DNA from: a virus
Lineage: Duplodnaviria; Caudoviricetes
Direction: 5' to 3' (one strand)
DNA length: 64,000 nt
IMG/VR virus record: IMGVR_UViG_3300031993_000006
Span: 64,001 to 128,000 of that record
Below are positions 18,201 through 38,116 of the stretch, in pieces; within the stretch, counting starts at the first letter, position 1, and every line of letters begins with the position of its first letter. The translations under genes were made by a program, and so were the position numbers. The notes under the pieces are model-generated. The model was not told the origin of the DNA. It did no database searches and saw only the letters and a program-made list of their open reading frames with translations.

Positions 18201-18807
18201 GATTTACCCTATTAGATGCCGATAACGCTCGCTTTGATATCAAATCTTGAAATCGATTCATTACACTCAGGCCAAGCCTACGACCAGCCACCTTGGCATC
18301 AATCCTATTCACAAATTCAACGGCTTCGTCAGAAGTGCTCGGCGATTCGTGGAATCTTGTCGCAACGATTTCACCGATTCTTCCCATCATTACGGTCTTA
18401 ATATTTTCAATCGTATTCTGTAAATCATTATTGCGACGCACCTCAGGATAGACATATTCGATAGTGCCACCTGAGGTACGATACCCGATTCCACTAGCTT
18501 TAAGTCCAGCATCAACTATATCGCTGACTTTCTGGTCGATTGCCCGGAAACACGGGGATTCATTAAGCTTACGAATCATTTTTGAATTATTAAGCGACCC
18601 ATCCTCATTCAGACATTCGGTAACATCCAGGTTTAACATACTGGCCATCTTGCCATACGGGAAAGGAATCAACTGAACACCCTTCGGAGCAGGGGTACCG
18701 GCTTCGAATAATACCCGGTAGGCACATTCAGTCAATGCGACCATTGCCGCGTCCACACCTTCAGAAATCAATTCCTTGTATTCACCTGCTGAAAACATAT
18801 CGTACAC
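15232..18807 (-). CDS. Large hypothetical protein with a C-terminal FISUMP (Fib_succ_major)-like domain
   Basis: The C-terminus NGLNWM...LFSMDEA...LPSGWRLPTLSEI...GFEPTG...YAW...SLAIKLVQ follows the FISUMP pattern (WM, P.GW.LP, GF...G, W, S.R.V). Start is GTG 18807 or ATG 18798. TATAAACT upstream at 18829-18836. Confidence 0.75.
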   Translation of the reverse strand: MYDMFSAGEYKELISEGVDAAMVALTECAYRVLFEAGTPAPKGVQLIPFPYGKMASMLNLDVTECLNEDGSLNNSKMIRKLNESPCFRAIDQKVSDIVDAGLKASGIGYRTSGGTIEYVYPEVRRNNDLQNTIENIKTVMMGRIGEIVATRFHESPSTSDEAVEFVNRIDAKVAGRRLGLSVMNRFQDLISKRALSASNRVNPDDDFFDHAIVSPLHKNITGEGASCIARNSDGSEWWDIPSIGTVDGDPKNAKSKVAWLIMNDFGNSRTNQITDESQTDGYADVWTDTVGGNTLARVKFVSDKGYALLSDYIQAFSSILTLGEAGYFNNISHQCDIYYKSYNVTEHTVWQGFIKDVRRACTARNNKSIKFLLYCRLAKILAKNDYYGKLSNVTTGRIVNIGGRLFEDNELEYGISVLKSLALLVECLEAKILDIDDLKDFVNNGATYDDAESILDARMKSIVRDIFGNEPEIGFAALVEYPDETLYALTDGKEGDTISARHKIGGLVGSIGSNTTTESARRLNNPEYQVALIKNTSIGYFVDLLNDMAKKTGEYVSISDDAIESIYDMGSPSVEYGTAVAIIHYFTSWILYIFNRTEFSPQFLTDAGNTYEQQDAALAKRIMDDCRRVVTPQLQEIAYKETCDGNGHATDETDNLVHEIGVLVTRVRGLQVWPKLRWLSQIGNDNNPLYMKSVDAKNLVRMIRYRADSGVINQNELLYIFKTYADSPDVLYDVEKNTVWGRRLKDVFRNIVDSNFNDRYLLVEDKYTETQYIKVFIEPNKDKFAICDSDILQMYLVMLKFYFALFSADEVLATKMFLDRKTGIFKCTKSELKDVSVGNGEKTVKKMVVIPLDTVRLKLMRIYDKLHHTLLETTDEKAEIALIGTCFAGARILTKPLYDGNIRGEEDAIKAQDLALSSLFEISNRYDKDVEPGKRVIEPEDLATFMETHSDAMLSQIDKIPLNIARELCQKYITPDKLQKMSSTSDGLLMLIRLGARAGWELFSRQFIRANEMNINKLIDTLPPDEAAVLAKKVKELAGNTSQFAVSGGVAAASKGQGSIQYHVANGLNWMDGFVRLNNGKMNTSRNATLFSMDEARQYIANGLPSGWRLPTLSEIEHLGNDPEVVAKKHLGFEPTGRMDENGELVDTFGCYAWCTNGDELTAYSVVNNAVEPDDFMVDTATESLAIKLVQ

Positions 18808-20179: not shown

Positions 20180-23100
20180 ATGAACGCATCAATCAACTTA
20201 AGCCTATTTGAAAGTGTCCGTATTCTCTTCGAAGCGGCCGCTACGGAAAACGAACTTTTCCGCATCATTGACGAAGATATCAGAAAGAACTTCTTTATTG
20301 AAGGCGACCCGACTATGCAGGCCGAGCAAGTCGACGAAGTTAACGATGTAGCCGAAATTTTCCGTACCGTAAGCGCTGCGGAAGCCCGACGCATTACCGG
20401 AAATGAAGAAATCCCAGATGTCGAAGATAACGATGCACCGGCCAACCCGGAAAATAATGCACCGAATGGCAACAATGGTACAATTTCAATCGTAGACTAC
20501 ATCCGTGCAAAGGCAATCGAAACCCTTACATATCCATCGAATCACCCAGGGTGCATGGGTATCGGTAATTCCCGCGAAGCAAAAATTAGACTTGGCAAAT
20601 TCTATGGAAGCAAACAAAAGCCGAAACCGCTGGACCCGAAAAACCCAGCAGGCAAATGGATATTGCCGCCGGATGAACCAGCTGCATTATCACAAACAAA
20701 ATATGCGCTCGTGTCCAATCCGGACCAATTGCCGCCAGACTTCAAAAATTATATCAGCCTGGTAGCTAGGCAATATCTACCCGGTTTAATCCGTATAGCA
20801 TTTGAGGATTGCGGTCTTGCTAGTTATCTATTCTATACATTTGATACACTCAGACGAGCACTATTGGTTTACTACGGCGAGCGTTTCGACAATAATTCAA
20901 AAAAACTACAGGACTTCCTTCGAGTGGAATTTCCACGGGAATGGGACTACGACCGTATGTTCCACCTAGCACATATTGTGATTCCGCAACTCGTCATCAA
21001 GTCTAAATTAGCACCGATGGAAGCAACGCCAAATTGCGACAAGGGTCTACTAAAGCAAAATATCGATTACCTCGGTAAAAACAATGTCGAGCTCATCCAA
21101 GAACTCATCGACCCAATCGAAACGCCGGTCGGACCAAACATTGATATAGGCGGTTCCCGTCCATTATCCTACAAAAACCTACTGAAACTTGCCGATGTTA
21201 ATGGAGTAAACCATTCTCAAGTTATTGACCAGCGAATGAAACGCCCTGATGGGACCTTGGATTATTATATTCCTCCGGAAAACAATAATGAGGATGATAA
21301 AAATAATGAAGATGAACAGGTCAAATTCCAGCTTGCCGGTCCGATAGTAACTGATGAAATGCGCCAATCTTATAACGATAACGCTCTTAAAGAAAAGTTA
21401 AAAAATGAAGCTAAATTAGAATTTCCTTCGATAAAGATAGGCGATTGGTATGTCGAACAAATCGGAAACGGCGTATCCGATGCAGAAAACTATCCAGATG
21501 GCTGGTTTACTTTTAATGAACCATCTGCCGGCAAACGACATCAATTCATTCACCGCACACCAAATGAGGAATACGGTGAAGGTGGCGTAGGATACTGGTG
21601 CTGGTGCCGCGGAATGCTCGAAAATTACCGGTCGTCTAAGTTGAAGGATGTCGCCTATGCGCTAGTCCATAAATCAGCACTTGACCCAGCAGTACTTAAA
21701 GACAAAGCATGGAACCATAAGCATAACGGAACTCGTTATGATGCATCAGCATTCGGTATTGTTATTGCCGGTGGTAAAGACCATAATCCTAACGAAGGCC
21801 ATATCCCTGGACTTGTTAAGGCAGATTGCTTCGAATCTAGAAATAACACGACATACGAAAGCGGTCGTCCCGGCCGTCCTAGCGCTGTATCATATCCACC
21901 CGACATGGTACCTAATGGCGGAAAAATTCCTGGTCTTGTCCCCATTAGAGACAGTATGTCCCTTAAAACAATGAACATTGCACAGGCTATCAATAACTCA
22001 ATCTTTTCATTAGCATTGATAGGCAAATGGGACTCCAACATAAATGTATACGATAGCGACGGAACACTGCACCCGGAAAATCTAGTACCCCTCATGCAAA
22101 AATGGTTCCCTGCCGATATTTCAGATGCCGAGCTTTTACCGGCACCGGAGAATATATATCATAGGCCAATTCGAATAAAGAGCATCGATATCAATGAAAT
22201 GGCGAAAGATATCGAACATATTATCACGACAAAGGGAACGCGTGTAAACGGTTTCCACCGCAGCGGAAACGATACTAGCGGCGATATATTTAAGTTCGAC
22301 GATTCTATTTTCAGAGGAAATGTATTTCAGTTTAAGGGAACCGACTATAGTGTATTAGCTAAGAATGATGCAACTCTTATTGCAGTTCCTACCGAAGTAT
22401 ACGATTCTACCCGTAAAAATTGTGATGGGAAGCTAGAAAATATCTTATTCTTCATGCAAGAAGATATTGACCCGCCGGCATTATTATTCCTCTATTTCAA
22501 CTATCCTGGCCAGAAGAAACATGTCGTTCCATTCCAAACAGAGCCAATCGCCTTGAGCGATGCACTATCGCTTAACGTCGATTCAGTAATAGACAAGCTC
22601 CAGCTCGACCAAATGAATAGAGATAAGCAAAAGAATCCACGCACTCTTCCTACACCGGATGAGCATGGCATCACCTGGTATGCTCCTATATTAGGCGAAA
22701 CACTCAAGAAAAATAGAATCGGCGTAGATATTAAGAACGGGGGAAAGGTATATCTTTCGGGACCGGATACAAATAATGAAGCCGTGCCTATCGAATGCAA
22801 AATACCCGGGCGCCTTCGGACATTCACCGCAAGAGGAAGTTTTATCAAGGTAGGTGACTCTGGATATAACCTATTTTTTAACGCACACCGCCGGAGCTAT
22901 ATCGGCTATGTAAGAAACAATAAAACTACTTGGTTCGAAGTCTTGTTCAGAACAACCTTCCCGGGAACCGATAATGCGCTTCTGAGCTACATCGATGATG
23001 AGGGGGAACGAGTCAAGAAACTGACGTTAGGCAACATCTATGGAAATCTAGCAAACCGTATGCGAATGTCCTCAAAAGACCGCTATACAGGATGCATCGA

Positions 23101-23326
23101 CTGGGTATCCACCGATGACACTATAGATGATGTCAATATATCCGATGACTTCAAGAATGAACAGTACGAGAATCATCCAAAAGATATCGGTCTATGCGTA
23201 ATCGCCGGCGATTTCAACGGAGACGCCCATAAGGCGGTGGGATATATCGACTGGTACAGTACCAGTACACTTGAATACCTCGATACGACTCCGGTATTCC
23301 TCAATGACCTATATCACAACGATTAA
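20180..23326 (+). CDS. Large hypothetical protein (1048 aa), partly related to the upstream gene
   Basis: AGGA RBS. N-terminal LFESVRILFEAA. YLPGLIRIAF matches YMPGVARIAV upstream, and YWCW...YDASAFGIVI...SRNN matches PWCI...YGTSMIAVIV...PRWN. Confidence 0.85.
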   Translation: MNASINLSLFESVRILFEAAATENELFRIIDEDIRKNFFIEGDPTMQAEQVDEVNDVAEIFRTVSAAEARRITGNEEIPDVEDNDAPANPENNAPNGNNGTISIVDYIRAKAIETLTYPSNHPGCMGIGNSREAKIRLGKFYGSKQKPKPLDPKNPAGKWILPPDEPAALSQTKYALVSNPDQLPPDFKNYISLVARQYLPGLIRIAFEDCGLASYLFYTFDTLRRALLVYYGERFDNNSKKLQDFLRVEFPREWDYDRMFHLAHIVIPQLVIKSKLAPMEATPNCDKGLLKQNIDYLGKNNVELIQELIDPIETPVGPNIDIGGSRPLSYKNLLKLADVNGVNHSQVIDQRMKRPDGTLDYYIPPENNNEDDKNNEDEQVKFQLAGPIVTDEMRQSYNDNALKEKLKNEAKLEFPSIKIGDWYVEQIGNGVSDAENYPDGWFTFNEPSAGKRHQFIHRTPNEEYGEGGVGYWCWCRGMLENYRSSKLKDVAYALVHKSALDPAVLKDKAWNHKHNGTRYDASAFGIVIAGGKDHNPNEGHIPGLVKADCFESRNNTTYESGRPGRPSAVSYPPDMVPNGGKIPGLVPIRDSMSLKTMNIAQAINNSIFSLALIGKWDSNINVYDSDGTLHPENLVPLMQKWFPADISDAELLPAPENIYHRPIRIKSIDINEMAKDIEHIITTKGTRVNGFHRSGNDTSGDIFKFDDSIFRGNVFQFKGTDYSVLAKNDATLIAVPTEVYDSTRKNCDGKLENILFFMQEDIDPPALLFLYFNYPGQKKHVVPFQTEPIALSDALSLNVDSVIDKLQLDQMNRDKQKNPRTLPTPDEHGITWYAPILGETLKKNRIGVDIKNGGKVYLSGPDTNNEAVPIECKIPGRLRTFTARGSFIKVGDSGYNLFFNAHRRSYIGYVRNNKTTWFEVLFRTTFPGTDNALLSYIDDEGERVKKLTLGNIYGNLANRMRMSSKDRYTGCIDWVSTDDTIDDVNISDDFKNEQYENHPKDIGLCVIAGDFNGDAHKAVGYIDWYSTSTLEYLDTTPVFLNDLYHND

Positions 23327-24169: not shown

Positions 24170-25243
24170 TTACCACGGCATACCATTGGACGGCTTACTG
24201 CGATTAGCCGCCTTTGCGAGGTCACTCAGGTTTGGTGGTTCCCGACGAGCAGTGCTGAACGGTACGAATGCCTGAGTCGGACTTGGTTCTTCGCCTTCAT
24301 CAGAATCCGGTTCAATCGCCTTGATGTCGCTAGGTTTCTTTCCAAGGAAACCACGGACAAGGTTAGGGTCAAGTCCACCAAAGATATCGTCGAGCGAAAC
24401 AACCTCTTGTTCCGGTGCATTTTCCGGCTTACCAAAGGTCTCGTTCATTGCGTCGTTGTATTCCTTAGTATACACGACATTGACGCCCGGGTCTATCTGC
24501 ATTATCGAATTATCGATGCCGGTAACCTGTGCGACAGTCTTGTACTTCTTCGGGTCCTTCACGCCGCAACGGATGAGAATGTCATAGTCAGAGTCGTCAA
24601 GCTCACGATTGAAATCGATGCCCTTCTGCGCGATAATGAGAGAACCCGCACGGGCGAGCTTCTCGCTTTCGGAATCGGCATCCATCGCATCCTGATAACC
24701 CTTCGGGTCGAACTTCTTGAAGACTTCAGTAATCGTAATCTTAGACGGGTCAGTGACACCGAAAATCGCAAGGAACTTTGGATACTTCGGAAGCCAGCTC
24801 ATCTTCTCCTTATCGCTAACCGGCGACTTGTAGTAGAACGGTATGCTGGATGTATACTCGGCTAGTCGTGCCGGAGATACCGCACCATTGCTGACGACAT
24901 CAGAAAAGTCATCGTATGTCGGCTTGGTAAGTTCCTTAGCCTGTTCACGGGTATAATGAGCGGCAATCATCTTAGCCTTTGGTGAAGCCGGCCAGTCGGA
25001 TTTCTTGTCTTCATCGGAAGGTTCATCCTTCTGTACTTTCACCGGCTTCGGCGCTTTAGACTTCTTCACTTCAGGTGCGCCCAATATTACAGTACCGGTA
25101 CTTTCGCCGGAAATCGTCGCTGGGCCACCCGCCTCTTTATCATTCTTGCCTGACTGGGACTCAATCGCAGCATCCCACTCGTCAAGCTCATCAAAAGCCT
25201 GTACTGCCTTCTCTATGGTTTCGTCATCAATCTTCTCAGCCAT
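24170..25243 (-). CDS. Hypothetical protein (~357 aa)
   Basis: GAGGAG RBS before ATG 25243 (MAEKIDD). Confidence 0.8.
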   Translation of the reverse strand: MAEKIDDETIEKAVQAFDELDEWDAAIESQSGKNDKEAGGPATISGESTGTVILGAPEVKKSKAPKPVKVQKDEPSDEDKKSDWPASPKAKMIAAHYTREQAKELTKPTYDDFSDVVSNGAVSPARLAEYTSSIPFYYKSPVSDKEKMSWLPKYPKFLAIFGVTDPSKITITEVFKKFDPKGYQDAMDADSESEKLARAGSLIIAQKGIDFNRELDDSDYDILIRCGVKDPKKYKTVAQVTGIDNSIMQIDPGVNVVYTKEYNDAMNETFGKPENAPEQEVVSLDDIFGGLDPNLVRGFLGKKPSDIKAIEPDSDEGEEPSPTQAFVPFSTARREPPNLSDLAKAANRSKPSNGMPW

Positions 25244-25280
25244 ATGGCGTCTCCTCATTTTACAAATAGAAAACTATACC

Positions 25281-25334: not shown

Positions 25335-26054
25335 TTAGTTCGCAGGGACCGCATTTTGAAGAACCATATCGGCAAGGGCGTCGTAATCGACTCCATCATC
25401 ACCAATAGATTCCTGAAGGCTCTTCTCGCCGCACTCTTCTATCGGAGTATCGGAATTCGGCTTTTTCGAATCCTTTTCGTCTTCCTTCTTGTCATCAGAC
25501 TTTTCGGAATCCTTCTTGACCGCATTTTTCGGGAACGGTGGCTTCGGTTTAACAACCGGCTTTTCGCCTTCCTTTTCACAGACTGTTTCGCACTTGTCGC
25601 CATCACAGACGGTCGTGCATTCGCCATCCTTGCATTTACCTTCGGCGCATTCCGGTGCACCGCCGACTTCCGGCTCGGCTACCACGACTTCGGTTTCATC
25701 CGCAGATTCCTCATCATCGTCGCTATTTCCAAAAAACACTTCGGCCGGATTCTTGCCGGAAGCGACAGCCTTATCGAATTCTTCCATCACGCCACCAACG
25801 ATAGCCTGTTCATCAGTATCGAGAAGCGGCATAAACACCTGGAGAAGACCGTTAATCCCTTCCTTGAGATTTTCAGCGGTGAACCCGCCAGCAGCTTCGA
25901 GCTTAGGCTTAATGTAACCTTCACGAACGGCCATGTTATACTTGAACTTATTGAGTGCGTCATTGTTCGTCCCGTCTTTCAGGGAATCAGCAAATCCCAT
26001 AAATGCTTCAAACTGAGCAGGGCCGAGAGTACGCTTAGGTTTGATGGTGGACAT
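25335..26054 (-). CDS. Hypothetical acidic protein (239 aa) with a small Cys-rich segment
   Basis: GAGG RBS, TATAAACT at 26089-26096, CAEGKCKDGECTTVCDGDKCETVC. Confidence 0.8.
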   Translation of the reverse strand: MSTIKPKRTLGPAQFEAFMGFADSLKDGTNNDALNKFKYNMAVREGYIKPKLEAAGGFTAENLKEGINGLLQVFMPLLDTDEQAIVGGVMEEFDKAVASGKNPAEVFFGNSDDDEESADETEVVVAEPEVGGAPECAEGKCKDGECTTVCDGDKCETVCEKEGEKPVVKPKPPFPKNAVKKDSEKSDDKKEDEKDSKKPNSDTPIEECGEKSLQESIGDDGVDYDALADMVLQNAVPAN

Positions 26055-26113: not shown

Positions 26114-27661
26114 TTAACCGGCGGCAAATACGAATTCAGGTTCAGTAGCAATCCCAAGCATTTCAAGGTTGACCTCACGGTTGTACTGAGCGACATTCTT
26201 GTCGACCACGTGCTGCCTGAACTCCTCGACGGTCATGGTCGGAATGCTGAGAAGCTGCAGTTCATCATTGGCAAGGTCGTTCACCCTATGGGATAATCCC
26301 TCAGGAACGATAAGGGAATCGTGTACGGTACAATACGGGCATCCGACCTCTCGAGTAACCCTCGGTATCAACCGGTCGAACACAAAGAAACTTTCAATGC
26401 GCTGCATCTCACGAGCTAAAGCAGGGTAATTTGTAGACTTCATCTGTTCGATAGCGCATAAAAGTCTAGGGAAATGCTCGACCCAGACACGTCTTGTAGC
26501 CGCCCTTAGCTCATTTGGGTCATTTTCGATGTTAACTGGACCAAATAGGAACACGAAGAATGCCTGTTTTGCCTCATCTCGGTCAATATTTCGGTCGATA
26601 TCGCAATCTTCTGACAGCTCATTTGCGAAAAACTCGTATAATTTACCATGTTTTAGGATTGAGTCGTACTTGTCGCACTCCAAAAGGTACTTTTCGGGGT
26701 CATTTATCTTGACTTTTTGCTGCAGCTCGCATAAAGTTGGTGATGAACGGAGGTCAAAGAAGCTATGATTCTCTACAATGGCCCGCAAAATTACACCAAG
26801 AAACGCACCCTGACTTGACTTGATATCGATTGAGCTAGTTGGGTGCCCGTCGCAGGTAAGGCATTCACTACGAACTTCCTTCTTCATCTGCGTAACATTG
26901 GTATGGATTCTACCGAAACGGTCCTTCTTCACGAACAGGGCGGTATTGCTTTTCCCTATCTGGTTAAAGCGCTCGACCTTCTTCATTTCAAGACGCATCT
27001 TCTTGGGTGTCATCTTCCCGGAATCCACCATTTCCCGCAAGAGCATTTCTGCCCTATCTTCCTCTATGGCGAAATGGGTCAGCTCATCATGACACTTCCT
27101 GATTCGAGGGTCTTCAAGCTGATGTGTCTTCACATCAGCCGCACAGAGCTCAAGCCGCTTGAGGAAAGGCTTGGACTTAATCATATAAGGACGCGTCCTG
27201 CCGAACTTCTTCATCGTCCCCGTCGTATCCGACATCCGGAACTCACGGGTAAAACAGTATTTGTCCCAATAGGACGCATACGGCTTGCAGAACCAGAATG
27301 CCTTGCTCTTTCCGGGACTCGATTTTGTCCCCACAAGGTATGTACGGCTTCTACCGATGAAGCCCCAACTTTCGAGGTCCTCGATGATTCTGTTATAGTC
27401 ATTGCCTATAGCGTTTCGGAGATATAGGGAATGCAGATTACAGTGCCAAGTGTTGATATCTACCGTGTTTCCCGCCATTCGGGAATCGTGGTAGACCCGC
27501 CTAAGCTGTCGGGAAACTAAGTGAAGTACGAAAAGATACTTCTCCCTATTACGTACACAGCCGGGATGCTTCTCAAGCTTCTGCTTGAGAGGGGTCATCA
27601 CGACCTCCGGAATGCGGATTTTGTACTCAAATTTGGGTAGCATGTCCTTAAAATTAGTCAA
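26114..27661 (-). CDS. Minimal family-A DNA polymerase / T7-RNA-polymerase palm-like protein with no exonuclease domain
   Basis: GRIHT, motif A-like IDIKSSQ, motif B-like RDEAKQAFFVFLFG, QRIES, motif C-like TVHDSLIV. Start uncertain (TTG 27661 or ATG 27643). Confidence 0.7.
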   Translation of the reverse strand: MTNFKDMLPKFEYKIRIPEVVMTPLKQKLEKHPGCVRNREKYLFVLHLVSRQLRRVYHDSRMAGNTVDINTWHCNLHSLYLRNAIGNDYNRIIEDLESWGFIGRSRTYLVGTKSSPGKSKAFWFCKPYASYWDKYCFTREFRMSDTTGTMKKFGRTRPYMIKSKPFLKRLELCAADVKTHQLEDPRIRKCHDELTHFAIEEDRAEMLLREMVDSGKMTPKKMRLEMKKVERFNQIGKSNTALFVKKDRFGRIHTNVTQMKKEVRSECLTCDGHPTSSIDIKSSQGAFLGVILRAIVENHSFFDLRSSPTLCELQQKVKINDPEKYLLECDKYDSILKHGKLYEFFANELSEDCDIDRNIDRDEAKQAFFVFLFGPVNIENDPNELRAATRRVWVEHFPRLLCAIEQMKSTNYPALAREMQRIESFFVFDRLIPRVTREVGCPYCTVHDSLIVPEGLSHRVNDLANDELQLLSIPTMTVEEFRQHVVDKNVAQYNREVNLEMLGIATEPEFVFAAG

Positions 27662-27798
27662 CCGAACGCCTTCTGGCAGGAGTTTATTTCAAAATTGCGG
27701 ACCCCATTGGTCCTTTCTATTCAAATAATAGCAAAAACTTACTTTCTTGGTGCATAGGGCTTACGCCATGTGATGGCCGATGCCATAAGCAACATCAG

Positions 27799-27916
27799 GT
27801 ACTATAAATATGTTTCAGGATTGAGGGTGGTTTAGGTGCTAATCCCAGGTTCCCCTGAGGATTCCCCCATGATGCAATAATGGATACAGAGTATCAAGTA
27901 CTATAAATATGTTTCA
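27799..27916 (+). repeat. Pair of exact 19-bp direct repeats GTACTATAAATATGTTTCA (27799-27817, 27898-27916); candidate origin element
   Basis: Read directly. Flanks are also similar (ATCAG/ATCAA ... GGATTGA/TGATTTGA). Lies in a divergent intergenic region. Confidence 0.8.
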
Positions 27917-28017
27917 TGATTTGAAACACAAATTCAAGCTATCGGAGGGGCTCGGAACGGCCTAAAGTCGGGGCTCCCGGGTTGCCCCCGGGGCCAATTT
28001 TAATTATATTCCATAAT

Positions 28018-28539
28018 ATGGAACCTATGGATATTCGGAGGCTGACGGCCTCCAAGCTAGAGCTGTGCCCAGCGCGGGATTTCTTCGCCGGTATTACCCG
28101 GTGGTGTACCGAGTTTTCCATTATGCGACCGGCTACGATGAGTTTCCAGTATGGGAATAAGGGGAGCATCATTGTCACACCGTATGGTGAGCCGTTGGAA
28201 CTCGCCGATACCGTCACTGACCCGGAAAGGTTTAGGAAAGCCCTGTCGATGGCGGTGTTCGAGTATGTCGGCCAGTGTAACCGGGTGATTGCGAGGCTTC
28301 CGTATATGCCAAACCAGCGATACAATATGTACCGGGGTGCAGGTGAGCCTAGCAGGCCCGGTCAGGTGTATCGAGTAGTTCTCTGGACGGGGATAGGCGA
28401 TGCCGGGGAATACAAGTTCTACTTCCTGCCTGAACGGGAAGCTGACCGCAAGACGATGGGTGCCGACAACGCCCCGAAGGTAGCCTATATGGTTCCCGAA
28501 TGGGTCTACAATGACCAGGCCGGGGTCGGGAGGGGATAA
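28018..28539 (+). CDS. Hypothetical protein
   Basis: ATG 28018 follows a TATATT box; its stop overlaps the uvsW start. Confidence 0.7.
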   Translation: MEPMDIRRLTASKLELCPARDFFAGITRWCTEFSIMRPATMSFQYGNKGSIIVTPYGEPLELADTVTDPERFRKALSMAVFEYVGQCNRVIARLPYMPNQRYNMYRGAGEPSRPGQVYRVVLWTGIGDAGEYKFYFLPEREADRKTMGADNAPKVAYMVPEWVYNDQAGVGRG

Positions 28540-30512
28540 TGGGAGTCGCTCCGTTCAAGGTAGTATTCGACAATGTTGATGGCGTTCTAGGCAAGATGTA
28601 TGTCCAGTGCTCGGATGTGTATACCCGTAAGACCGTGTTTGCGTTTGTGCTCGACACGATGACTTACCACAGCAAGGAAAAGGAGCGCACATGGGAAGGC
28701 CAGTTCGGGTACCACGATTGTATCGAGAAGTTCTTCAACGGGGTGGAGCATACCTTGCCGATTGGGCTTATACCCCGAGTCAAGAATTACCTTAAGGAAA
28801 CGTTTGGCGAAAATGCCCATATCGGGATTACTGACTCCATCCGGCAGATGTTTTCGCCGCCATTCGGGAAGATTACCAGTGAGACCGTGCAGAAGTATGC
28901 CGACTCGCTCGGAATGTGGAGAAAGGCGGCGTATCTTAGGGATTTGGGTAAGGCTAATGCCGCGATTGCCCGCGGGGAAAGTGTGGAGGTTCCGGACAAG
29001 TCTAAGTATGGCCTCAAGCTGTTCGACCACCAGGAGCAGATTGTGCTCGAGGCGCTCAACCGCCGACGGATATCCCTGCTGGCCTGTACGAGTTCGGGCA
29101 AGTCGCTTTCGATGATGGTTATTGCCCGGTACCTTGTCGACCGGGAGAACCGGAAGGTATTGGTGGTCGTTCCGAACGCCGCGCTGGTGCAGCAGTTGTT
29201 CCGAAACTTTGCCGAGGACTATGGATGGGAGGAGGCTGGGGAACATTGCATCAGGATGTATGCCAACTCACCGGACAAGCTAAAGAAGAAGCAGAAGGAT
29301 GAGTTGAAGCGCCTCAAGCTTGGCGAAGAGGCGATGCTGAAGGATATCACCATTTCTACCTGGCAGTCCCTCAGGACGAAGCCGGACGCCTTCTTTAAGG
29401 TGTTTACTGCGGTGATGGTGGATGAGGCGCATACGGCAAAGGGTAAGGAACTCCGCGATATTCTCGCCAAGTGTACCAACGCCAACAATCTAAAGGTAGG
29501 CTTTTCCGGGACTCTCCCGGATGCCGAGCTTACCGCCGAGATTACTTCGTCTCCCAGGCTCCGTGCGATGCTTGGTGATGTACTCCCGGGTCAGCAGATG
29601 GATGAGAGTGAAGTACGAAAAGCTGACTTGAGCAAGTATATCGACGCTGGCTTTATCGAGGGGGGTATCGGTCCCCGTAAGGATATCGTTCACCTGTGGG
29701 AGCTTATTGCGAAAGGAATCCTTACCCCTGTCAAGGTGAAGGCTATATTCATTCCGTATCCCCAGTCGGTGCGTCCAAGTATATGTTCGGCGAAGTGCCA
29801 CTATGATACCGAGCGGGATATCGTGGTCGGCAACAGTTCTCGGAAGGATGTTATCGGCAGTATGTTCGACAACGGGTATGTCACTGCTGAACAGAACACG
29901 GTAATCCTCTACAACTTCAAGGAGAACATGTATTCTCTGCTGGAGCACCTGAAGGTGAAGCATCCTGAGTTCACTTATCATGTAGTCGAGGGCGATGTCG
30001 ATGTAGACGACCGAGACGATATCAGCGTGAAGCTTGAGGACGGTGTTGGTAATGTACTGATTGCCACTTATCAGTGCCTCCGGCAGGGCGTGAACATAAC
30101 CTTGCTCCATAACCTCATTATGGCTGAGCCGGTAAAGTCCCCGTATACCGTGATGCAGTCCATCGGCCGCATTGTTCGCAAGAACTCGACCAAAACTAGT
30201 GCGACCGTGTATGACCTCGTTGATGATGCGTCGTATTACACGAGTCCGTACGGGGGAGGCCCGGGTAGACTCAAGCTCAACTATATGATGAAGCATTTCT
30301 ATATTCGGGCGGGCTATTACGAGAAGGAGAAAATTCCCATTGAGGAAGAACACTTGGATGGTATATACGAGGCGCAGGTGACACCGGACGATGTTAAGCA
30401 GCGCCGCGATGCTGCTATCAAGAAAGCGCAGGAGAATATGGCCAAGCGTCGTTCTCAGCAGCACTTCAGCGCGATTCAGCAGTTCGGGCCCCGTACGATG
30501 TTCACAAAATAG
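28539..30512 (+). CDS. uvsW: UvsW-like SF2 DNA helicase
   Basis: Q motif DHQ, Walker A CTSSGKS, DEAH, GFSGT, QSIGR; T4-like N-terminal LPIGL. Confidence 0.9.
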   Translation: MGVAPFKVVFDNVDGVLGKMYVQCSDVYTRKTVFAFVLDTMTYHSKEKERTWEGQFGYHDCIEKFFNGVEHTLPIGLIPRVKNYLKETFGENAHIGITDSIRQMFSPPFGKITSETVQKYADSLGMWRKAAYLRDLGKANAAIARGESVEVPDKSKYGLKLFDHQEQIVLEALNRRRISLLACTSSGKSLSMMVIARYLVDRENRKVLVVVPNAALVQQLFRNFAEDYGWEEAGEHCIRMYANSPDKLKKKQKDELKRLKLGEEAMLKDITISTWQSLRTKPDAFFKVFTAVMVDEAHTAKGKELRDILAKCTNANNLKVGFSGTLPDAELTAEITSSPRLRAMLGDVLPGQQMDESEVRKADLSKYIDAGFIEGGIGPRKDIVHLWELIAKGILTPVKVKAIFIPYPQSVRPSICSAKCHYDTERDIVVGNSSRKDVIGSMFDNGYVTAEQNTVILYNFKENMYSLLEHLKVKHPEFTYHVVEGDVDVDDRDDISVKLEDGVGNVLIATYQCLRQGVNITLLHNLIMAEPVKSPYTVMQSIGRIVRKNSTKTSATVYDLVDDASYYTSPYGGGPGRLKLNYMMKHFYIRAGYYEKEKIPIEEEHLDGIYEAQVTPDDVKQRRDAAIKKAQENMAKRRSQQHFSAIQQFGPRTMFTK

Positions 30513-31903
30513 TGGGCAGGAAGATGCCACCCTTTAGGGTGGCTTAGGAATGCCCACGAGAACACTTTGGGAACACTTTCTTGGTTTCTTGCAGAGAAAT
30601 GAGTACAAAACGGTTGCAATTAGCACTGTACTTTTATAAACTTTAAGCTGAACACGGGTGAAAGTATGTGTACGATAACTTACGATAACTTATAATGCAG
30701 AGCTCCGCTTCAAGGATAGAGCAGACCAAGAATACTGGTCTAGTCTTCTTGGAACGGCTAGACTCGCATACAATGAGTGTGCCAACATACTAGATTCCAA
30801 CAAGATACACCTGGACTTGAAGTCCGTACACAATGCGGTGTACTATATATTACGGGAAGACTTTCCGACAATACCATCCCAAGGTATCATCAAAATATAT
30901 AAGGAGTGCATATCAGCATTCCGTTCAATCAACTCCAATGGACATATAGAACACAAGATTCCGACCAAGAAGAACCTGTCTATGCGGTTGGACAAGCGGC
31001 TCTACTCCAAAATGAGTATTGATGGAATATCGCTTTGCTCGGAGAAATCCAATCGTAGGGCAGTTGCCGAAATAGTCAAGTTTCCCCGACTGGTTGATTT
31101 GTTCAAGAAATTTCCGACCCAGGACCCACTCATCTTCAAGCGAGACGGCAAGTTCTACTTGTCCATTCCGTTTGATGCACCAGAAATTCCAGTACAGAAC
31201 GACACCTGCATCGGCGTAGACTTGGGAGAGCGTAGGTTTGCGATTACCTCGGATGGCATCATGTTCAACGACAAGGAATACAATGCCCGTAGGCGTAAAC
31301 TCCGCTACTTGAAGCGTTGCTTACAGAAGAAGGGAACCAAGTCTGCTAGACGGCATAAACGCAACTTATCAGTTAAGGAAATGAACCAGTCCACAGATAT
31401 GTGCTATAAAGTTGCTAATGCAATTATTGAAATCACGGTGGATAGCTTCATCGTCCTAGAAGATTTAAGCAATATCAAGAAGAATACTTCCAAGTCCAAG
31501 GAAGGGTTCAAGAAGAAAAATCATAACCGTAGAATTGGGCAGGTTCCGTTCTACAAATTCAAACAAATCTTGTCATACAAGGCACTACTCAATGGAAAAC
31601 GGGTAGAAACAGTTTCTCCGTTTATGACAAGCCAAACCGACTGCACGACAGGCAAGAAAGACGGAACACGCAAGAACCGAAGATTCTATTGCAAGAATGG
31701 TACCGTCCTTGATGCCGACTGGAATGGTGCAGTCAATATCGCTCAAAAGAGCAAACATCCTTTCTCGTTCAAGATGCCGCTAGACGGTACTCTGAAAACC
31801 TGGAAGGCAGGGTGCAAGTCAACCACCCAATCGTGTATCAGTCTCCCTCTGGAAACACCGGGAGCCGTACAAGCTCACCGCCTTTAGTCGGTGGGTAGTT
31901 GAC
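30513..31903 (+). mobile_element. IS200/IS605-family tnpB-only element #1
   Basis: Left-end hairpin GCCACCC-TTTA-GGGTGGC (30526-30543), right-end hairpin CTCACCG...CGGTGGG followed by TAGTTGAC (to 31903). No tnpA. Confidence 0.8.
30666..31887 (+). pseudogene. tnpB: TnpB RNA-guided nuclease, 5' end frameshifted by a 10-bp tandem duplication
   Basis: RuvC motifs GVDLG, VLEDL and DADWNGAVNI are intact. ATG 30666 reaches TAA at 30693 because TACGATAACT occurs twice (30671-30690). Removing one copy gives MCTITYNAELRF..., in frame with the 30817 ORF. Confidence 0.8.
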
Positions 31904-33212: not shown

Positions 33213-33389
33213 GTGAACTACGCACCGCCTAGAGGCAATGAGCTTCGCGTTAGTCCCGAATGGATGCCCGCGCCTTTAACCCCGATTTCCCCGAGGCGAG
33301 TACCTTGCGATACACTAATAGTTTATAAATTTTTACCCAATGTGTCAAGGGGCTTTCATATCACCGCCTAAAGATGGTGAGTTTTCCGC
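33213..33389 (-). mobile_element. Non-coding IS200/IS605 mini-element (left end, promoter, omegaRNA scaffold, right end)
   Basis: 33213-33300 aligns with the 3' end of tnpB element #2 (49813-49900). Left-end hairpin TCACCATC-TTTA-GGCGGTGA. TTGACA-17-TAAACT promoter on the minus strand (33348-33320). Confidence 0.8.
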
Positions 33390-33412
33390 CTATACTCTAT
33401 AAACTAGTCGAT

Positions 33413-36400
33413 ATGAATACGCTAGCTAATATCATCCTCGAATCTCATCTTGGCACCCGTATGCAGAACCTGCTGTACGAGGCCTGTTGCATTTTGGAAG
33501 CAACCAATATCAACAAGGACTACTTGTTGCATGTTGCCGGCTCGCCCGAGAAACTGGCTGATGCGAAAACCAAGGTCAACGAGGCTTGGGCGAATGCTTC
33601 CTTGGCAAATATTATTCCGGCGAAGCTGAACCAGAAGGTTCTTAATTTTACCTACCTGATGGAATTGTTGCAGCCCGGGTTTACCGATGGTGAGTATATT
33701 GCCCAGATTCACGATTTGGCTATCCAGCGTAGTCTGGAGCAGCGTTTTATTAACAAGGTTAATTCCGATACCGTACCTGAGCAGGCTAAGGCAATCCTTT
33801 ATTCGGCAAACGCCGATGCGGTGCAGGCTGCCAAGACATATCCTGAGCTTACTCCGGAGCAGGAGAGGATATGGAATCGCGTGAAGGTTTACCATGAGTT
33901 TCCCGATGGGTTCCGGTGGGTCTATGCCGTGGATGATAATGGTTGCAAGATTGGGTATATACCGTCTGCAATTACTGCGATTACGATGCATCATTGCGGT
34001 AACGAACCGTCCAAGAAGGAAGGAAATGAATATTGGGAATTGCGCGATGCTCGAGGTAAGGCTTATTTGACTGTTATCTTGAACGATGACGGGGGCATCG
34101 AGGAGTCCAAGTCTTGGGGAAACCAGCTTAACAAGTATACGGATATGATTCGGCCGCATGTAAAATGGTTGCTGAAGGACCGTCAGGTAACTGGCGTAGG
34201 TGACCGGTACAATGTCGGCTATGCACCCGATAGGAACTTTGGTGTTAAGGATTTCGTCGGAAAGGATGATGAATTCGTTGACTATGTGGTTGAAAATAAG
34301 CCTCAGCTCATTGGTAAGGCGGAAGCCCGTGTGTTGTTCTTGAAGGGTGCGATAGACAGCGGTGTGCTTTCTGTGCAGGATTTGAAGAATGCTTATGCGG
34401 AAGGAATGACTATCTCCGATTTGGAGGATATGGTTCCCGCATTGTCTGAATATGAGGAGCAAGCAAGGTTTAAGCTACCTACTGACGAAAAGGGCTGCTC
34501 TGCTGGTTCAATATTTGGATTTAACTCATTTGCTGTATTGTGTGCCGCGTGTGGGGGGAACCCGTTTAATAAAGAGGAACTTATATCCCTGATTATGGAG
34601 GATAAGATAAGCCTTGAAGTATTTGCGAACTATGATGTTCATTTGTTGACCGATGATATCCAGGCGGCTTTTGTTAAGGCTAACCCCACTCATAACTTAA
34701 ATGTCTTGCAGGAAATCGCGGCACAGGTTGCAAGTTTCACAATTTCTCCTACGACTATTGATGCTTTGTTTCCTGAAGCGAACGAGAATAGCAGCAAGGT
34801 AAATCTAGGTAATCGGTTGTATACTCTTTTGCGTTATGTGGAACAAGGTAATCCGCCGTCGAAGATGTATAAATATGCGGAGCGTTTATTTTTGACAGAA
34901 CCTTCCATTCGTGTATTGGAAGATGTTATTCGGAGTTCGGCTTACGAATATGGGTGGAATTTGGATTCTGTCGGGTGCTTGCAGCGATGCATTAACATAC
35001 TTCGTATTCACGATATCCCAAACCGTGTGGCCATTGTTACTCATTTAGCGGAAATCTTTAGTTCGGGTGACTTGGATAGCTTTAATGTTAATTCGAGCCA
35101 TGTAGCTGAAATGGTGGCATCATTTGATTTAATAGATAACGAAGAATTGATTAGTGGGCTTGGACGAGGATTGAGCACGGATGTTTTGCTTATGGCGTTG
35201 ACCGGATTGAGCGATAATACTGAATATGATGTTATACAGCATATGATTCATGTTATCGAGCGGATGAAAGGCCCTGAGTTCTTGCAGCAGCCGGAGATTT
35301 TAGGGAAGTTGACTGATTTTCGCCTAACTTGGGCTTTGATAAATATACATCCGGATAGCGAGGGTAGTGAGGATATTGCGATTAAAACTGCCAATCGCTG
35401 TTGTGCTATACTTTCATCAGGCCATAGTTCAAGCGACTTGAAAGGTTCGGCAAGAAGTATTCTCCTGCAGACTATGGGAAAGTTCCCCTCGATTATACCG
35501 GCGGTGTATGAAGAAGAAAAGGGTGACTTTATAAAGGCTATTGAAGCTGTAATGTCAAAGGAGAACTCCAAGGAAATAAAATCGGCTGGACTGTCTGAGC
35601 CGATGGTGGAAACTATAATCGATGCAATTGCAGGTATGGTCGAAATAAATACTGACCGCGACCGGAGCTGGGATTATGGGAACTCCCGGGAGATGTGTTG
35701 CGACGACTGGGAAAGGCTAGGAAAGTCATTGTGCTATATGGCAAGGCTGTACAGCATTCACCCAAAGGTACTTTGCGCGAAATGTCAGGAACGCTTGCCG
35801 GCTATGATAGAGTACAGGTGTAATGTTCCCGGCGCGTGGGATTTTTGTGAGGTTCCGTTTGAACAATGGGAAGCTGCATTTAGGAAATGGGGGTACAGAT
35901 TCCTGCGCTATTATGTTCTCCTTATGCCAGATGACCAGTTTAACGAAAGTAAGTTCATTAGTGACTTCGTTGTGAATAAGTTGGCTAATGCTGATGAAGC
36001 AAATGGTGATATTGTTGATGCGATTGAAAGAATGCGGAGTGGGATTGGACCCGGGAAGATGAGCCGCATCGCAAAGGTTATGTCATATAAGATTGTCCAC
36101 AATGAATTGCCGATGGATGAACAGCGGTTCAATGCGCTGTATCGGTTGCGTATGATTAATTCTGATGCTTATCGTGCATATATGAGCCGTATAAAGGAAG
36201 CTACTGGTTCCGACATTACGATTTCTTCGCTTGAAGATGCTGAAAACACGAACCGTATGATAAAGAGCATGACCAAGTACGACCGGATGCCGGATATTGT
36301 GTCGACAACAGTAAAATATCTGCTTGACTATATTTATGAACATCTCGGCGACGGAAGGCATACTTGGAGAGTTGACGAAGAGGCATACGAATATGTCGAT

Positions 36401-36709
36401 GTCCTTGACTCCATAATGGGCAAGATTCTTTCTAAGTATAAGACCGGAATGGTTCCTTATACTATCAAGCGTCTATTCGATGATGGTTCCTTTGCGCGCA
36501 TCGATGGTTTCAAGAAGGCTAACTGGGATGCTTGTAATACCCCGGGAAAGCCGTTGTCGAAATTTAAGTGCGATGCCGACGGTATTATGGAGGAGATTGC
36601 CGGTCAAATGCATGCTGTCCGCGATACTGTGGAAGAGATTGCGGCAAAGCCAATTAAGAAGCCGAGCGCCAAAAAGCGGGCTGTTAAGGCAACTCCTGTA
36701 CCTAATTAG
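33413..36709 (+). CDS. Large hypothetical protein with a PcfJ-like domain
   Basis: MHHCGN...YWELRDARGKAYLTV...ESKSWGN resembles the PcfJ pattern (M.HC, LRD, T, K..N). TATAAACT at 33398-33405 favours ATG 33413. Confidence 0.75.
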   Translation: MNTLANIILESHLGTRMQNLLYEACCILEATNINKDYLLHVAGSPEKLADAKTKVNEAWANASLANIIPAKLNQKVLNFTYLMELLQPGFTDGEYIAQIHDLAIQRSLEQRFINKVNSDTVPEQAKAILYSANADAVQAAKTYPELTPEQERIWNRVKVYHEFPDGFRWVYAVDDNGCKIGYIPSAITAITMHHCGNEPSKKEGNEYWELRDARGKAYLTVILNDDGGIEESKSWGNQLNKYTDMIRPHVKWLLKDRQVTGVGDRYNVGYAPDRNFGVKDFVGKDDEFVDYVVENKPQLIGKAEARVLFLKGAIDSGVLSVQDLKNAYAEGMTISDLEDMVPALSEYEEQARFKLPTDEKGCSAGSIFGFNSFAVLCAACGGNPFNKEELISLIMEDKISLEVFANYDVHLLTDDIQAAFVKANPTHNLNVLQEIAAQVASFTISPTTIDALFPEANENSSKVNLGNRLYTLLRYVEQGNPPSKMYKYAERLFLTEPSIRVLEDVIRSSAYEYGWNLDSVGCLQRCINILRIHDIPNRVAIVTHLAEIFSSGDLDSFNVNSSHVAEMVASFDLIDNEELISGLGRGLSTDVLLMALTGLSDNTEYDVIQHMIHVIERMKGPEFLQQPEILGKLTDFRLTWALINIHPDSEGSEDIAIKTANRCCAILSSGHSSSDLKGSARSILLQTMGKFPSIIPAVYEEEKGDFIKAIEAVMSKENSKEIKSAGLSEPMVETIIDAIAGMVEINTDRDRSWDYGNSREMCCDDWERLGKSLCYMARLYSIHPKVLCAKCQERLPAMIEYRCNVPGAWDFCEVPFEQWEAAFRKWGYRFLRYYVLLMPDDQFNESKFISDFVVNKLANADEANGDIVDAIERMRSGIGPGKMSRIAKVMSYKIVHNELPMDEQRFNALYRLRMINSDAYRAYMSRIKEATGSDITISSLEDAENTNRMIKSMTKYDRMPDIVSTTVKYLLDYIYEHLGDGRHTWRVDEEAYEYVDVLDSIMGKILSKYKTGMVPYTIKRLFDDGSFARIDGFKKANWDACNTPGKPLSKFKCDADGIMEEIAGQMHAVRDTVEEIAAKPIKKPSAKKRAVKATPVPN

Positions 36710-36733: not shown

Positions 36734-38116
36734 ATGGCAAAAAAGAGTAACAGGGCTGCTAAGGCGTTCAAGACGTTGACCTCGGAGCCGCCGGTCACAA
36801 GTTACCCGTACAACAATAACAGGGTAATGATAGTTGACTGGGCCTCCCTGTCCTATCATATGTTTTATTCAATAGGTTCGGATAAAAACCGTGCCAAGTA
36901 CGGTTTGATGAGTTCCGAGGGTGAAATTGAACTGTGGCGTACCAAGATGGTCACTAAGTTGATGGATTATGTCGCCCTGTTCAACCCGAAGCACATCATT
37001 TTTGCCCTAGAAGGCAAGGCCGCTTGGCGAAAGAAGTTTGTCGAGCGTTACTACGACGAGCATGCGGTAATTTACTGGAACTCGAGTGAGTATTATGTGC
37101 AGGCGGACAACTACCTCTACATGGTACAGAAGGCTACGGTAGGCGATGGGTATGCCATTACCAAGCTGAAGGCGTCAGACCGTCTGAAACTCGGGGAACT
37201 TTCCCACAAGTTACTTGGAAAGATGCCCCAGAAGCAGCACGATATGTTCTGGAAGCTGAAGCTGCCGAAGGGTCAGCCAGTGCTGCCATCCTACAAGGGT
37301 CACCGCGCGTCGAAACCATGGACTTTTTTCACTGATAAGAAGGTATGGGCTGAGTATCGTGAGCAGTTTGCTCAGGAACTTGCCCCCTTGTTCCGCGCCC
37401 GCGCCATCCAGTGTCTCCATGCTGAAGGTGACGATATCATCTATGCGGCCGCAACACAGCTTGCTGTGGAGAGCGATGATATCATTGTCATCACGAAAGA
37501 CTCGGACATGACGCAGATTAAGTACTCCAATGTTAAGATTTTCAATCACCAGACCGATACATTCTCTACGCTGGATGACCCGGAGAAATATCTTGACCTT
37601 AAGGTCTTGATGGGGGATAGCTCCGATAACATCAACGGTATGGCGTTTGTCAACCCGAAGGATGGGTCATTTGCCGAAAAGCGGAATACCCAGCTTTCTG
37701 ATGTAGGCGCGGCAGACCTCCTTGCAAACTGCCCGAATGTCTACGAGGCTGCGAAGAAGTACGGTTGGGATGACCAGTATATGAGGAACCGTACGCTCAT
37801 CGACCTTTCCCGGGTTCCCCCTGATGTGACACAGGAAATCGATATACAGATGGACTTGACGCGCGAGCCTGACTTCGTTGCCGGATTCGAACGCCTGGAA
37901 TTCTGGAATATCCCCGAGCGCATCCAGTCGACCTACCGGATTATGCAGACGAGCGGGTTTTTCGCACTGAATAATGTCAATACGACGAATATTTTGGACA
38001 TCGCCGCATACAACAAGCAGAAGGAGGAATCCGCCCATGTACCTCTTGAAGTGGTTGATTCGGTGGCTACGGCGGAGAATTTCGGCCTCGAAGACGACCT
38101 TGATGTGAATTTCTGA
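36734..38116 (+). CDS. rnh: T4-type RNase H / 5'-3' exonuclease (FEN family)
   Basis: IVDW, YKGHR, EGDDII, TKDSDM, LMGDSSDNING, RNRTLIDL. Confidence 0.9.
   Translation: MAKKSNRAAKAFKTLTSEPPVTSYPYNNNRVMIVDWASLSYHMFYSIGSDKNRAKYGLMSSEGEIELWRTKMVTKLMDYVALFNPKHIIFALEGKAAWRKKFVERYYDEHAVIYWNSSEYYVQADNYLYMVQKATVGDGYAITKLKASDRLKLGELSHKLLGKMPQKQHDMFWKLKLPKGQPVLPSYKGHRASKPWTFFTDKKVWAEYREQFAQELAPLFRARAIQCLHAEGDDIIYAAATQLAVESDDIIVITKDSDMTQIKYSNVKIFNHQTDTFSTLDDPEKYLDLKVLMGDSSDNINGMAFVNPKDGSFAEKRNTQLSDVGAADLLANCPNVYEAAKKYGWDDQYMRNRTLIDLSRVPPDVTQEIDIQMDLTREPDFVAGFERLEFWNIPERIQSTYRIMQTSGFFALNNVNTTNILDIAAYNKQKEESAHVPLEVVDSVATAENFGLEDDLDVNF

Follow-up and report, generated by a model that had tools for sequence, protein, structure and literature searches.

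We analyzed a 64,000-nucleotide stretch of DNA (hereafter, the window) from a virus of the Caudoviricetes (Duplodnaviria), comprising bases 64,001 to 128,000 of the 259,974-bp IMG/VR virus record IMGVR_UViG_3300031993_000006. The window carries a minus-strand gene for a minimal polymerase of the PolA/T7-RNAP superfamily (RNAP, RNA polymerase), and two copies of a short element lie upstream of this gene in an intergenic region (about 27.66 to 28.03 kb) that, judging from base composition, is most likely the bidirectional replication origin of a 260-kb T4-like phage. The features at the center of the locus are listed below.

26114..27643, minus strand: minimal PolA/T7-RNAP-superfamily polymerase gene, 509 aa from ATG (from the list of open reading frames [ORFs] and the translation)
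26204..27127, minus strand: thumb, palm, and fingers catalytic region, residues 173-480 (from the T/DxxGR, A, B, and C motifs)
27128..27643, minus strand: N-terminal domain, residues 1-172, winged-helix-like, candidate DNA-recognition module (from the domain model)
27681..27687, minus strand: ATAAACT box, 37 nt before the ATG and downstream of both elements (from motif counts)
27794..27822 (core 27799-27817), minus strand: proximal element, exact 19-mer, TGAAACATATTTATAGTAC in gene orientation
27893..27921 (core 27898-27916), minus strand: distal element, identical core, co-oriented, 99 bp from the proximal element

Origin region and the genome around it

An initial annotation of this DNA had described the polymerase as a 515-aa ORF at 26114..27661 on the minus strand. 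The ORF is real, and an alternative TTG start at 27661 gives that length, but homologs begin at the ATG at 27643 and favor the 509-aa form, from which residue numbers are counted here. The same annotation had pointed out two exact 19-bp repeats 99 bp apart, which are indeed the cores of the two elements. The pair can be extended to 29 nt with 2 mismatches, and no further copy of the 19-mer within 3 mismatches was found across the 259,974-bp genome. With only two copies, both asymmetric, some 20 bp long, and in the same orientation, the elements look more like tandem promoters of a single-subunit polymerase than like an iteron array. Their ends, TATAG or TATGG, recall T7-type promoters, which is a resemblance only.

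The ordinary promoter element of the polymerase gene is probably the ATAAACT box. This heptamer occurs 34 + 22 times against about 14 + 16 expected (approximately twofold), precedes many gene starts by 20 to 45 nt in the appropriate orientation, and is probably a promoter element of the phage; examples are at 9437, 11450, 48216, 51078, and 56019 on the plus strand and at 27687, 26095, 24164, 18835, and 9379 on the minus strand. In relatives, ATAAACTC is conserved in the region of the box. Since this widespread box sits nearer the ATG of the gene, the 19- to 29-bp elements are, on sequence grounds, distinct from the gene's ordinary promoter. We also considered TATAAATA, within the repeat, as a T4-type late promoter and rejected it, as the 260-kb genome has 5 copies of this octamer where 7 would be expected.

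Plotted cumulatively along all 260 kb of the genome, GC skew describes a single V whose global minimum falls at about position 92,000 of the genome, that is, 28,000 of the window, and the best two-segment change point is at window position 27,400. This bears out a flip in strand composition near 27.7 to 28.0 kb that had been noticed by eye. Left of the site, plus-strand skew is -0.071 in plus-strand genes and -0.077 in minus-strand genes, and right of it the values are +0.105 and +0.058, respectively; the skew is still positive in the final 40 kb, where almost every gene is on the minus strand. A purely transcription-driven skew is ruled out, in the window as well as in the relatives described below, since the sign tracks the side of the site and not the strand of the gene. 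Besides, genes on both arms are mostly oriented away from the site, and G exceeds C on the strand read outward from it on both sides, which fits an origin and not a terminus. No terminus-like skew maximum was seen within the contig, which ends without terminal repeats and is linear as assembled. The single genome-wide minimum and the side-dependent sign support the bidirectional origin that the initial annotation had proposed at about 27.7 to 28.0 kb.

The genome encodes a T4-type major capsid protein, Gp23 (E value, 2.5e-65), its own family-B DNA polymerase, PolB (E value, 1.3e-33), a DnaB-like helicase, and a Rad50/gp46-like ATPase, in accord with the earlier view of a T4-like phage with a family-B replicase. 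A 397-aa frame gave a weak Toprim match in the genome scan and is a candidate for the phage primase. Neither a standard PolA nor a PolIII alpha was found in the genome, a PF00476 search of which was empty. Because PolB is present, the minimal polymerase is an accessory enzyme, and a role as the main replicase of the phage is ruled out. An 8-kb segment around the locus had no blastn match among GenBank phages.

Family and predicted fold of the polymerase

An exhaustive phmmer search retrieved at least 1525 cluster representatives at an E value below 1e-3, mostly 380 to 550 aa long, and no Pfam, PHROGs, or NCBIfam model matches the window protein or 72 homologs. Indeed, PF00476 (DNA_pol_A) did not match the protein or any of 73 homologs at an E value of 0.1, and PF00940 (RNA_pol) gave no match at an E value of 1 in a search run without a positive control; a direct Pfam scan was also empty.

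In a diverse 73-member alignment, R245, D273, Q278, Y336, K359, Q414, E417, H441, and D442 are invariant, and the family consensus contains the blocks DxYGRxHTNxTNLKKExR, DIxxSQPxFL, RxxxKxxxxxxLF, and TVHDSI, which by sequence represent motifs T/DxxGR, A, B, and C of the PolA/T7-RNAP superfamily. In the T/DxxGR motif, D241 is nearly invariant and R245, the β-hairpin arginine, is invariant across the 73 sequences. The catalytic aspartates of motifs A and C are D273 and D442 (the latter with H441), and the O-helix of motif B has a nearly invariant R355, an invariant K359, and F367-G368 at the eighth and ninth positions after the lysine. The segments IDIKSSQ, RDEAK…FLFG, and TVHDS, which had been proposed as motifs A, B, and C, fall on the invariant (for R355, nearly invariant) columns D273/Q278, R355/K359, and H441/D442, so that the assignment holds. 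Judged by these residues, the polymerase is catalytically intact.

The sole sequence match of the family profile in the PDB was N4 RNAPII gp16, with E values of 0.014 for the full-length profile and 0.0023 for the catalytic region alone and with motifs B and C aligned. An hhalign comparison of the family with N4 RNAPII, covering motifs A and B, had an E value of 7.7e-5. The motif A Asp of the N4 enzyme corresponds to D273, and its segment RNDCKQAIMTALYG to motif B. Set against T7 RNAP as a single sequence, the full-length profile of the family reached an hhalign probability of only 0.2, which is uninformative.

The AlphaFold (AF2) model of the polymerase has a pLDDT (predicted local distance difference test) of 92.7 and a pTM (predicted template modeling score) of 0.86. 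In VIA-align comparisons with residues ~173-480, the Z scores were 14.3 for Pol theta (251 residues, 3.5 Å), 14.2 for Klenow, 13.9 for the yeast mitochondrial RNAP, 13.1 for T7 DNA polymerase, 11.3 for T7 RNAP, and 9.0 for N4 RNAPII, and superposition on DNA polymerases covered 249 to 260 residues with a root mean square deviation of 3.5 to 4.2 Å. The best 50 Foldseek matches were all family-A DNA polymerases (E values of about 4e-5 to 3e-4), with a probability of 1.00 for nearly all and 0.99 for five. Thus, the predicted fold is the right hand (thumb, RRM palm, and fingers) of the family-A/T7-RNAP enzymes, and the family-A palm supposed by the initial annotation agrees with the model. In the ESM-Atlas, one structural-neighbor cluster is auto-named "family A palm domain-containing," and structural neighbors of known phylum are mostly from Bacteroidota. 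Residues 378-432, between motifs B and C, form helices only in the model, with no promoter specificity β-hairpin.

No exonuclease domain was recognized, as had been remarked before: the Pfam scan was without a hit, and the N-terminal 172 residues gave only weak matches, to folds of the winged-helix type. Modeled alone, this domain reached a pLDDT of 90.7, and its best VIA neighbors were nearly all winged-helix DNA binders (Fur, ORC/Cdc6, LexA, MarR, TFIIE, and 4pta), with Z scores of 6.1 for Fur, 5.1 to 5.6 for ORC/Cdc6, and 5.1 for the plasmid "MDR initiator" 4pta, all below 8; Foldseek returned nothing for it at an E value below 0.05. According to the model, the domain is probably a winged helix, and a DNA-binding-like N-terminal domain is conserved family-wide.

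The residues that bear on the use of ribonucleoside triphosphates (NTPs) or deoxynucleoside triphosphates (dNTPs) are of mixed type. In T7 RNAP, Y639 and G542 accommodate the 2'-OH, and in Klenow, E710 is the steric gate. In an ungapped alignment with N4 RNAPII, the invariant Q278 stands at the T7 G542/Klenow E710 position, its equivalence to E710 being drawn from the motifs and not from a structural superposition. The eighth residue after the motif B Lys, at the T7 Y639/Klenow Y766 position, is Phe (F367, also the consensus of the 73 homologs), and the fourth is also Phe, like Klenow F762. Motif C is HDS (HDS or HDC in the family) as in T7-like RNAPs, versus HDE of PolA DNA polymerases. The protein has neither the HDE motif C and Glu steric gate (DYSQIE) that are canonical for family A nor the motif B Tyr and motif A Gly of T7-like RNAPs, which are replaced by Phe and Gln. 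Roles of the motif residues in A-family cores are taken partly from PMC7581432. With Gln and Phe at these positions, the enzyme would be without the two best-known RNAP devices for the 2'-OH, and we lean slightly toward dNTPs rather than NTPs as its substrates, although its sequence proximity to an RNAP, N4 RNAPII, conflicts with these DNA-polymerase-like sugar-selectivity residues.

Conservation of the locus and its neighbors

The genes and minor features that surround the polymerase gene and its two elements are as follows.

24170-25258 and 25335-26054, minus strand: two same-strand genes directly downstream of the polymerase gene, 362 and 239 aa
27699..27713, unstranded: hairpin GGACC-N5-GGTCC with a 5-bp stem, located between proximal element and gene (from a terminator-like scan)
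27712..27750, unstranded: AT-rich stretch (~70 to 73% A+T), 50 to 90 nt downstream of the proximal element (from a 30-bp A+T profile)
27921..27937, unstranded: AT-rich inverted repeat TTGAA-N7-TTCAA abutting the distal element (read from the sequence)
27972..27995, unstranded: GC-rich hairpin, with a palindrome at 27982-27997 (folding z, -1.1 against shuffles)
27996..28023, unstranded: AT-rich stretch (80% A+T) with the palindrome TTCCATA-A-TATGGAA at 28009-28023 (from the A+T profile)
28027..28539, plus strand: 170-aa ORF divergent from the polymerase gene, no Pfam or PHROG match
28539..30512, plus strand: UvsW-like SF2 helicase gene, divergent (Pfam ResIII/DEAD/Helicase_C; T4 UvsW, PDB 2oca, E value of 4e-40)
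36734..38116, plus strand: 5'-3' exonuclease gene of the FEN/T4 RNase H type, on the UvsW side (Pfam 5_3_exonuc_N, 2.7e-14)

A pattern scan of IMG/VR gave 39 related loci (24 to 59% identity, on contigs of up to 572 kb), which form 22 clusters at 85% identity, 19 of them with usable flanks; the distant homologs P0041 and P0061, on short contigs, stand outside the context comparison. In 18 of the 19 nonredundant loci, skew changes from negative upstream of the gene to positive downstream of it, and 13 have a local cumulative minimum within -1000 to +500 of the gene start, compared with a chance expectation of about 1.3. When the relatives are pooled, genes of either strand have positive skew downstream (+0.073 and +0.059) and negative skew upstream (-0.021 and -0.065). 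The UvsW gene, which the initial annotation had recognized just across the region and which the match to 2oca verifies, has a divergent upstream homolog in 29 related loci, and a FEN gene follows beyond UvsW in 27.

Exact direct-repeat pairs of 16 to 25 bp, spaced by 96 to 186 bp, lie upstream of the gene in 12 related loci; the pair in L011/L032 is spaced by 822 bp, and other loci, such as L010 and L014, have imperfect pairs. Most of the 19 nonredundant relatives carry one or two upstream elements that share GAAACAT…TAT(A/G)G in gene orientation, with cores such as TTAAACATATCTATAGGAC, GTAAACATCTTTATGG, CGAAACATTAACATGG, and TGAAACATATATTTGG, and the core GAAACATTCTTATAG is found in relatives of 27 to 29% identity. 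The repeats are exact within each genome and diverged between genomes. Furthermore, AAACAT occurs 49 times in the forward and 10 times in the reverse direction within 1.1 kb upstream of 37 loci, against some 0.3 occurrences per 1.1 kb in the background. Alignment of the intergenic region with that of L002, the nearest relative (59% protein identity), places both elements among the best-conserved blocks. Thus, the expected linkage of gene and repeats holds, since the gene, the skew flip, UvsW, and paired upstream elements go together in relatives of 27 to 59% identity.

Smaller features of the intergenic region have counterparts as well. In L002, a GC-rich palindromic stretch occupies the position that corresponds to the hairpin at 27972..27995, and in L007, L010, L012, and L014, an invariant palindrome, AATTTGAATTGCAAATT, precedes the distal element, analogous to the inverted repeat at 27921..27937. 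In the same four loci, a TTGAAATTCAAAT block follows the proximal element and a conserved CCGGACTAGCACCGCTGGT block lies nearer the gene; L025 has CCGGACTAGCACCGCTGGT upstream of its element. Of the GC-rich inverted repeat that had been noted at about 27945 to 27995, the hairpin and palindrome are present, but the folding (z, -1.1) is indistinguishable from that of shuffled sequences, and we do not count it as a significant structure. The AT-rich stretch at 27712..27750 is a candidate unwinding region. The intergenic region contained no tRNA and no structured RNA matching Rfam at an E value of 1.

Among the remaining neighbors, the 170-aa ORF is conserved only in L002 (31% identity), and the two downstream genes, whose products had no Pfam or PHROG family matches, are likewise conserved only in the nearest relative, except that 24170-25258 is also weakly conserved in four more. 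A TnpB/IS605 OrfB-type gene with a Cas12f1-like TNB domain (E value, 6.5e-17) lies at 30817-31887 on the plus strand, 3 kb from the origin; it is missing from this position in relatives, and weak TnpB-like matches (25 to 27% identity) lie elsewhere in L005 and L014. The window also contains five very long ORFs of 1048 to 2703 aa (1225-9336 and 15232-18807 on the minus strand; 20180-23326, 33374-36709, and 43657-48219 on the plus strand), and the three that were scanned (1191, 1048, and 1111 aa) have no Pfam domains. A pattern scan of genome contigs found the polymerase on three contigs of metagenome-assembled genomes only. One homolog (L047; 28% identity to the distant subgroup described below) is on a 317-kb contig, JAFXNA010000004.1, of a sheep-rumen Bacteroidaceae assembly, which may be a large phage or prophage and a hint at host range.

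Role of the polymerase and comparison with known systems

The anatomy of the locus and its conservation point to origin-specific priming as the most likely role of the polymerase. We propose that the two co-oriented 19- to 29-bp elements (GAAACAT…TATAG) would be the cognate start or recognition sites of the polymerase, which would start there without a primer and head toward its own gene. Its product, a primer or an R-loop/D-loop, would be extended by the PolB replisome as the first leading strand, and the opposite fork would be set up later by the DnaB-like helicase and the Toprim primase. Such a start would have its parallels in T7 RNAP at the tandem promoters φ1.1A/φ1.1B and in the R-loop origins of T4, where UvsW unwinds the R-loops afterward. 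We see an even chance that a dedicated minimal polymerase in this way recognizes two specific start sites and supplies the PolB replisome with its first primer or loop. We give somewhat less credence, a little short of even, to the bolder idea of a new class of initiator, in which a winged-helix reader joined to a minimal T7-RNAP/PolA core targets only two promoter-like origin elements and may make a DNA primer de novo.

Several observations weigh against this proposal. Family-A DNA polymerases are normally unable to start de novo; CcPol requires a partner single-stranded DNA-binding protein for its de novo start, and no conserved partner gene lies next to the polymerase gene among the related loci. 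A candidate Toprim primase is already present in the phage. The winged-helix assignment is weak, with Z scores of at most 6.1 and no Foldseek match, and that the protein binds the elements and starts at them is what we infer from anatomy and conservation. Furthermore, the record is a linear contig estimated to be 91% complete, and relatives were compared only over ±10 kb. A large subgroup, L015-L034, has a single clear element (GAGAACATATAGTG) and a local skew minimum 3 to 5 kb downstream, on the gene's side. Homologs of about 25% identity in uncultured phages of 595 to 735 kb (L050-L054, that is, LR756501, LR756504, LR756502, LR756511, and LR745206) lie at a skew switch in one of five cases, with the switch within 3 kb only in LR756504. 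A tie to origins is therefore not a property of the entire family but, as far as composition tells, of the clade of 27 to 59% identity.

The fold and the gene neighborhood would also suit a primer-dependent repair or gap-filling DNA polymerase, a stand-in for Pol I that works with FEN/RNase H and UvsW, the repeats being read by another factor and the adjacency reflecting gene clustering. Pol theta, Klenow, and other family-A DNA polymerases are the top structural matches, the residues at the positions of Klenow F762 (Phe) and E710 (bulky) are DNA-polymerase-like, and a FEN-type exonuclease and UvsW are the conserved neighbors. We nevertheless regard this role as unlikely, as it leaves unexplained the gene start within a few hundred base pairs of the skew minimum in 13 of 19 lineages, the elements that always point into the polymerase gene, and the family-wide DNA-binding-like N-terminal domain; moreover, the motif C Glu of PolA enzymes (HDE) is Ser here. 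Transcription is a decidedly unlikely function, although a minimal N4-RNAPII-like single-subunit RNAP for a class of phage genes, with the origin site merely the place where early divergent units start, would account for N4 RNAPII being the only solved protein found by sequence, for a motif C (HDS/HDC) like that of T7-like RNAPs, and for the widespread promoter-like ATAAACT box in the genome. The confinement of the only long conserved gene-linked element to this locus, the independence of the skew flip from gene strand, Phe at the Tyr639 equivalent, invariant Gln at the Gly542 equivalent, a model without the β-hairpin specificity loop between motifs B and C, and the empty PF00940 search (run without a positive control) tell against it.

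It is very improbable that the protein acts mainly as an origin-binding initiator, its winged helix binding the elements as iterons and melting DNA like a plasmid Rep while the polymerase activity is secondary or vestigial. Invariance of the catalytic residues in more than 70 diverse homologs implies that the activity is under selection, and two asymmetric, co-oriented copies 96 to 186 bp apart are, as far as general knowledge goes, unlike typical iteron arrays; what such an initiator would explain is the weak match of the N-terminal domain to ORC/Cdc6 winged helices and the plasmid initiator 4pta and the repeats that are exact within but divergent between genomes. As for the switch itself, a linear, incomplete contig without terminal repeats and without a terminus-like maximum leaves some room for a terminus, a recombination junction, or an assembly artifact, with the repeats as an unrelated regulatory duplication. 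The clean single V over 260 kb, with G exceeding C outward on both sides and genes co-oriented outward, and the recurrence of the flip at this gene in 18 of 19 independent lineages make this extremely improbable.

The origins and initiators of almost all uncultivated large phages are unknown and are usually inferred from skew alone, and the present locus, with its element pair, polymerase, and UvsW, is a defined conserved module open to cloning and testing. Origin priming by the dedicated polymerase, if true, would be a third origin-priming route in T4-like phages, beside host-RNAP R-loops and recombination, and the second biochemical example of an A-family fold as a primase, after CcPol-MP. 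A compact polymerase of ~500 aa with a recognition site of ~20 bp could become an orthogonal tool for replication or transcription. Besides, no Pfam, PHROG, or NCBIfam model covers the family, which has 1525 or more cluster representatives, and its annotation would touch many metagenomic phage genomes.

Minimal A-family/T7-like polymerases and polymerase-primed origins are already known. In the searched literature, three features of the present system, which the protein-family libraries lack as well, appear to be undescribed: the fused architecture of a winged-helix-like domain and a minimal polymerase core, the stable synteny with UvsW at a skew-defined origin of T4-like large phages, and a private pair of conserved elements beside the polymerase gene.

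In phage T7, the T7 RNAP gene (gene 1) is followed directly by φ1.1A and φ1.1B, which are separated by 75 bp; they are the primary origins, and every T7 origin requires a T7 RNAP promoter (PMC8373140). The arrangement in the window is similar in that a single-subunit polymerase of the same superfamily adjoins two tandem co-oriented elements of ~20 bp (99 bp apart here, 75 bp in T7), with AT-rich DNA nearby, at a bidirectional replication start, which here is predicted from skew. However, T7 RNAP transcribes most of the phage from many promoter copies, whereas the window element is at one locus, and the window elements are upstream of the gene and point into it, whereas the T7 promoters are downstream. 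The window enzyme is also much smaller (509 versus 883 aa), has no T7 N-terminal domain or specificity hairpin, and carries Phe and Gln at the Tyr639 and Gly542 positions. Of the solved proteins, N4 RNAPII (gp15/gp16; PDB 6dt7), another minimal T7-like core, is the closest in sequence, and the alignments take in motifs A, B, and C. It is a two-subunit enzyme with an RNAP-type M…YG motif B and a motif A Gly, whereas the window protein is a single chain with a winged-helix-like N terminus, F…FG, and Gln.

Two families of minimal polymerases are also comparable. The TV-Pol family of Iyer, Abhiman, and Aravind (2008) consists of exonuclease-less minimal viral cores that are predicted to prime; the hallmarks of its gene context are a D5-like helicase and a resolvase or integrase, and some members have an extra N-terminal domain (PMC2579912). 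The window enzyme shares the minimal exonuclease-less core, the thumb, the β-hairpin Arg, the two catalytic Asp residues, and the RxxxK fingers, but its locus has no linkage to a D5-like helicase, resolvase, integrase, or transposase, and its conserved partners are UvsW and FEN; it is a stable syntenic core gene of T4-like large phages and not part of a mobile element. The 73-homolog profile found nothing at an E value of 1 in Microcystis phage Ma-LMM01, a reported TV-Pol carrier, after a loose first-look filter. CcPol-MP is an A-family core that acts as a primer-independent, dNTP-using primase for the replication of its own element (PMC7581432), and such CcPol-MP/PolA-SSB primases belong to SCCmec and Bacillota mobile elements (PMC7581432, PMC10061031). 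A conserved Phe occupies the F762-equivalent position in CcPol-MP as in the window enzyme. CcPol requires an adjacent small OB-fold partner and works with an MCM-like or D5-family helicase, whereas the window locus has no conserved adjacent partner, and a DNA-binding-like domain is fused to the polymerase instead.

T4 itself, with ori(uvsY) and ori(34), resembles the window phage in its PolB, DnaB-like helicase, UvsW, RNase H/FEN, Rad50-like protein, and gp23 capsid. UvsW of T4 removes origin R-loops. R-loops at T4 origins prime leading-strand synthesis (PMC3016281). T4 employs the host RNA polymerase at middle-mode promoters and has several origins, whereas in the window phage skew defines one origin only, next to which an additional polymerase of the phage's own is encoded.

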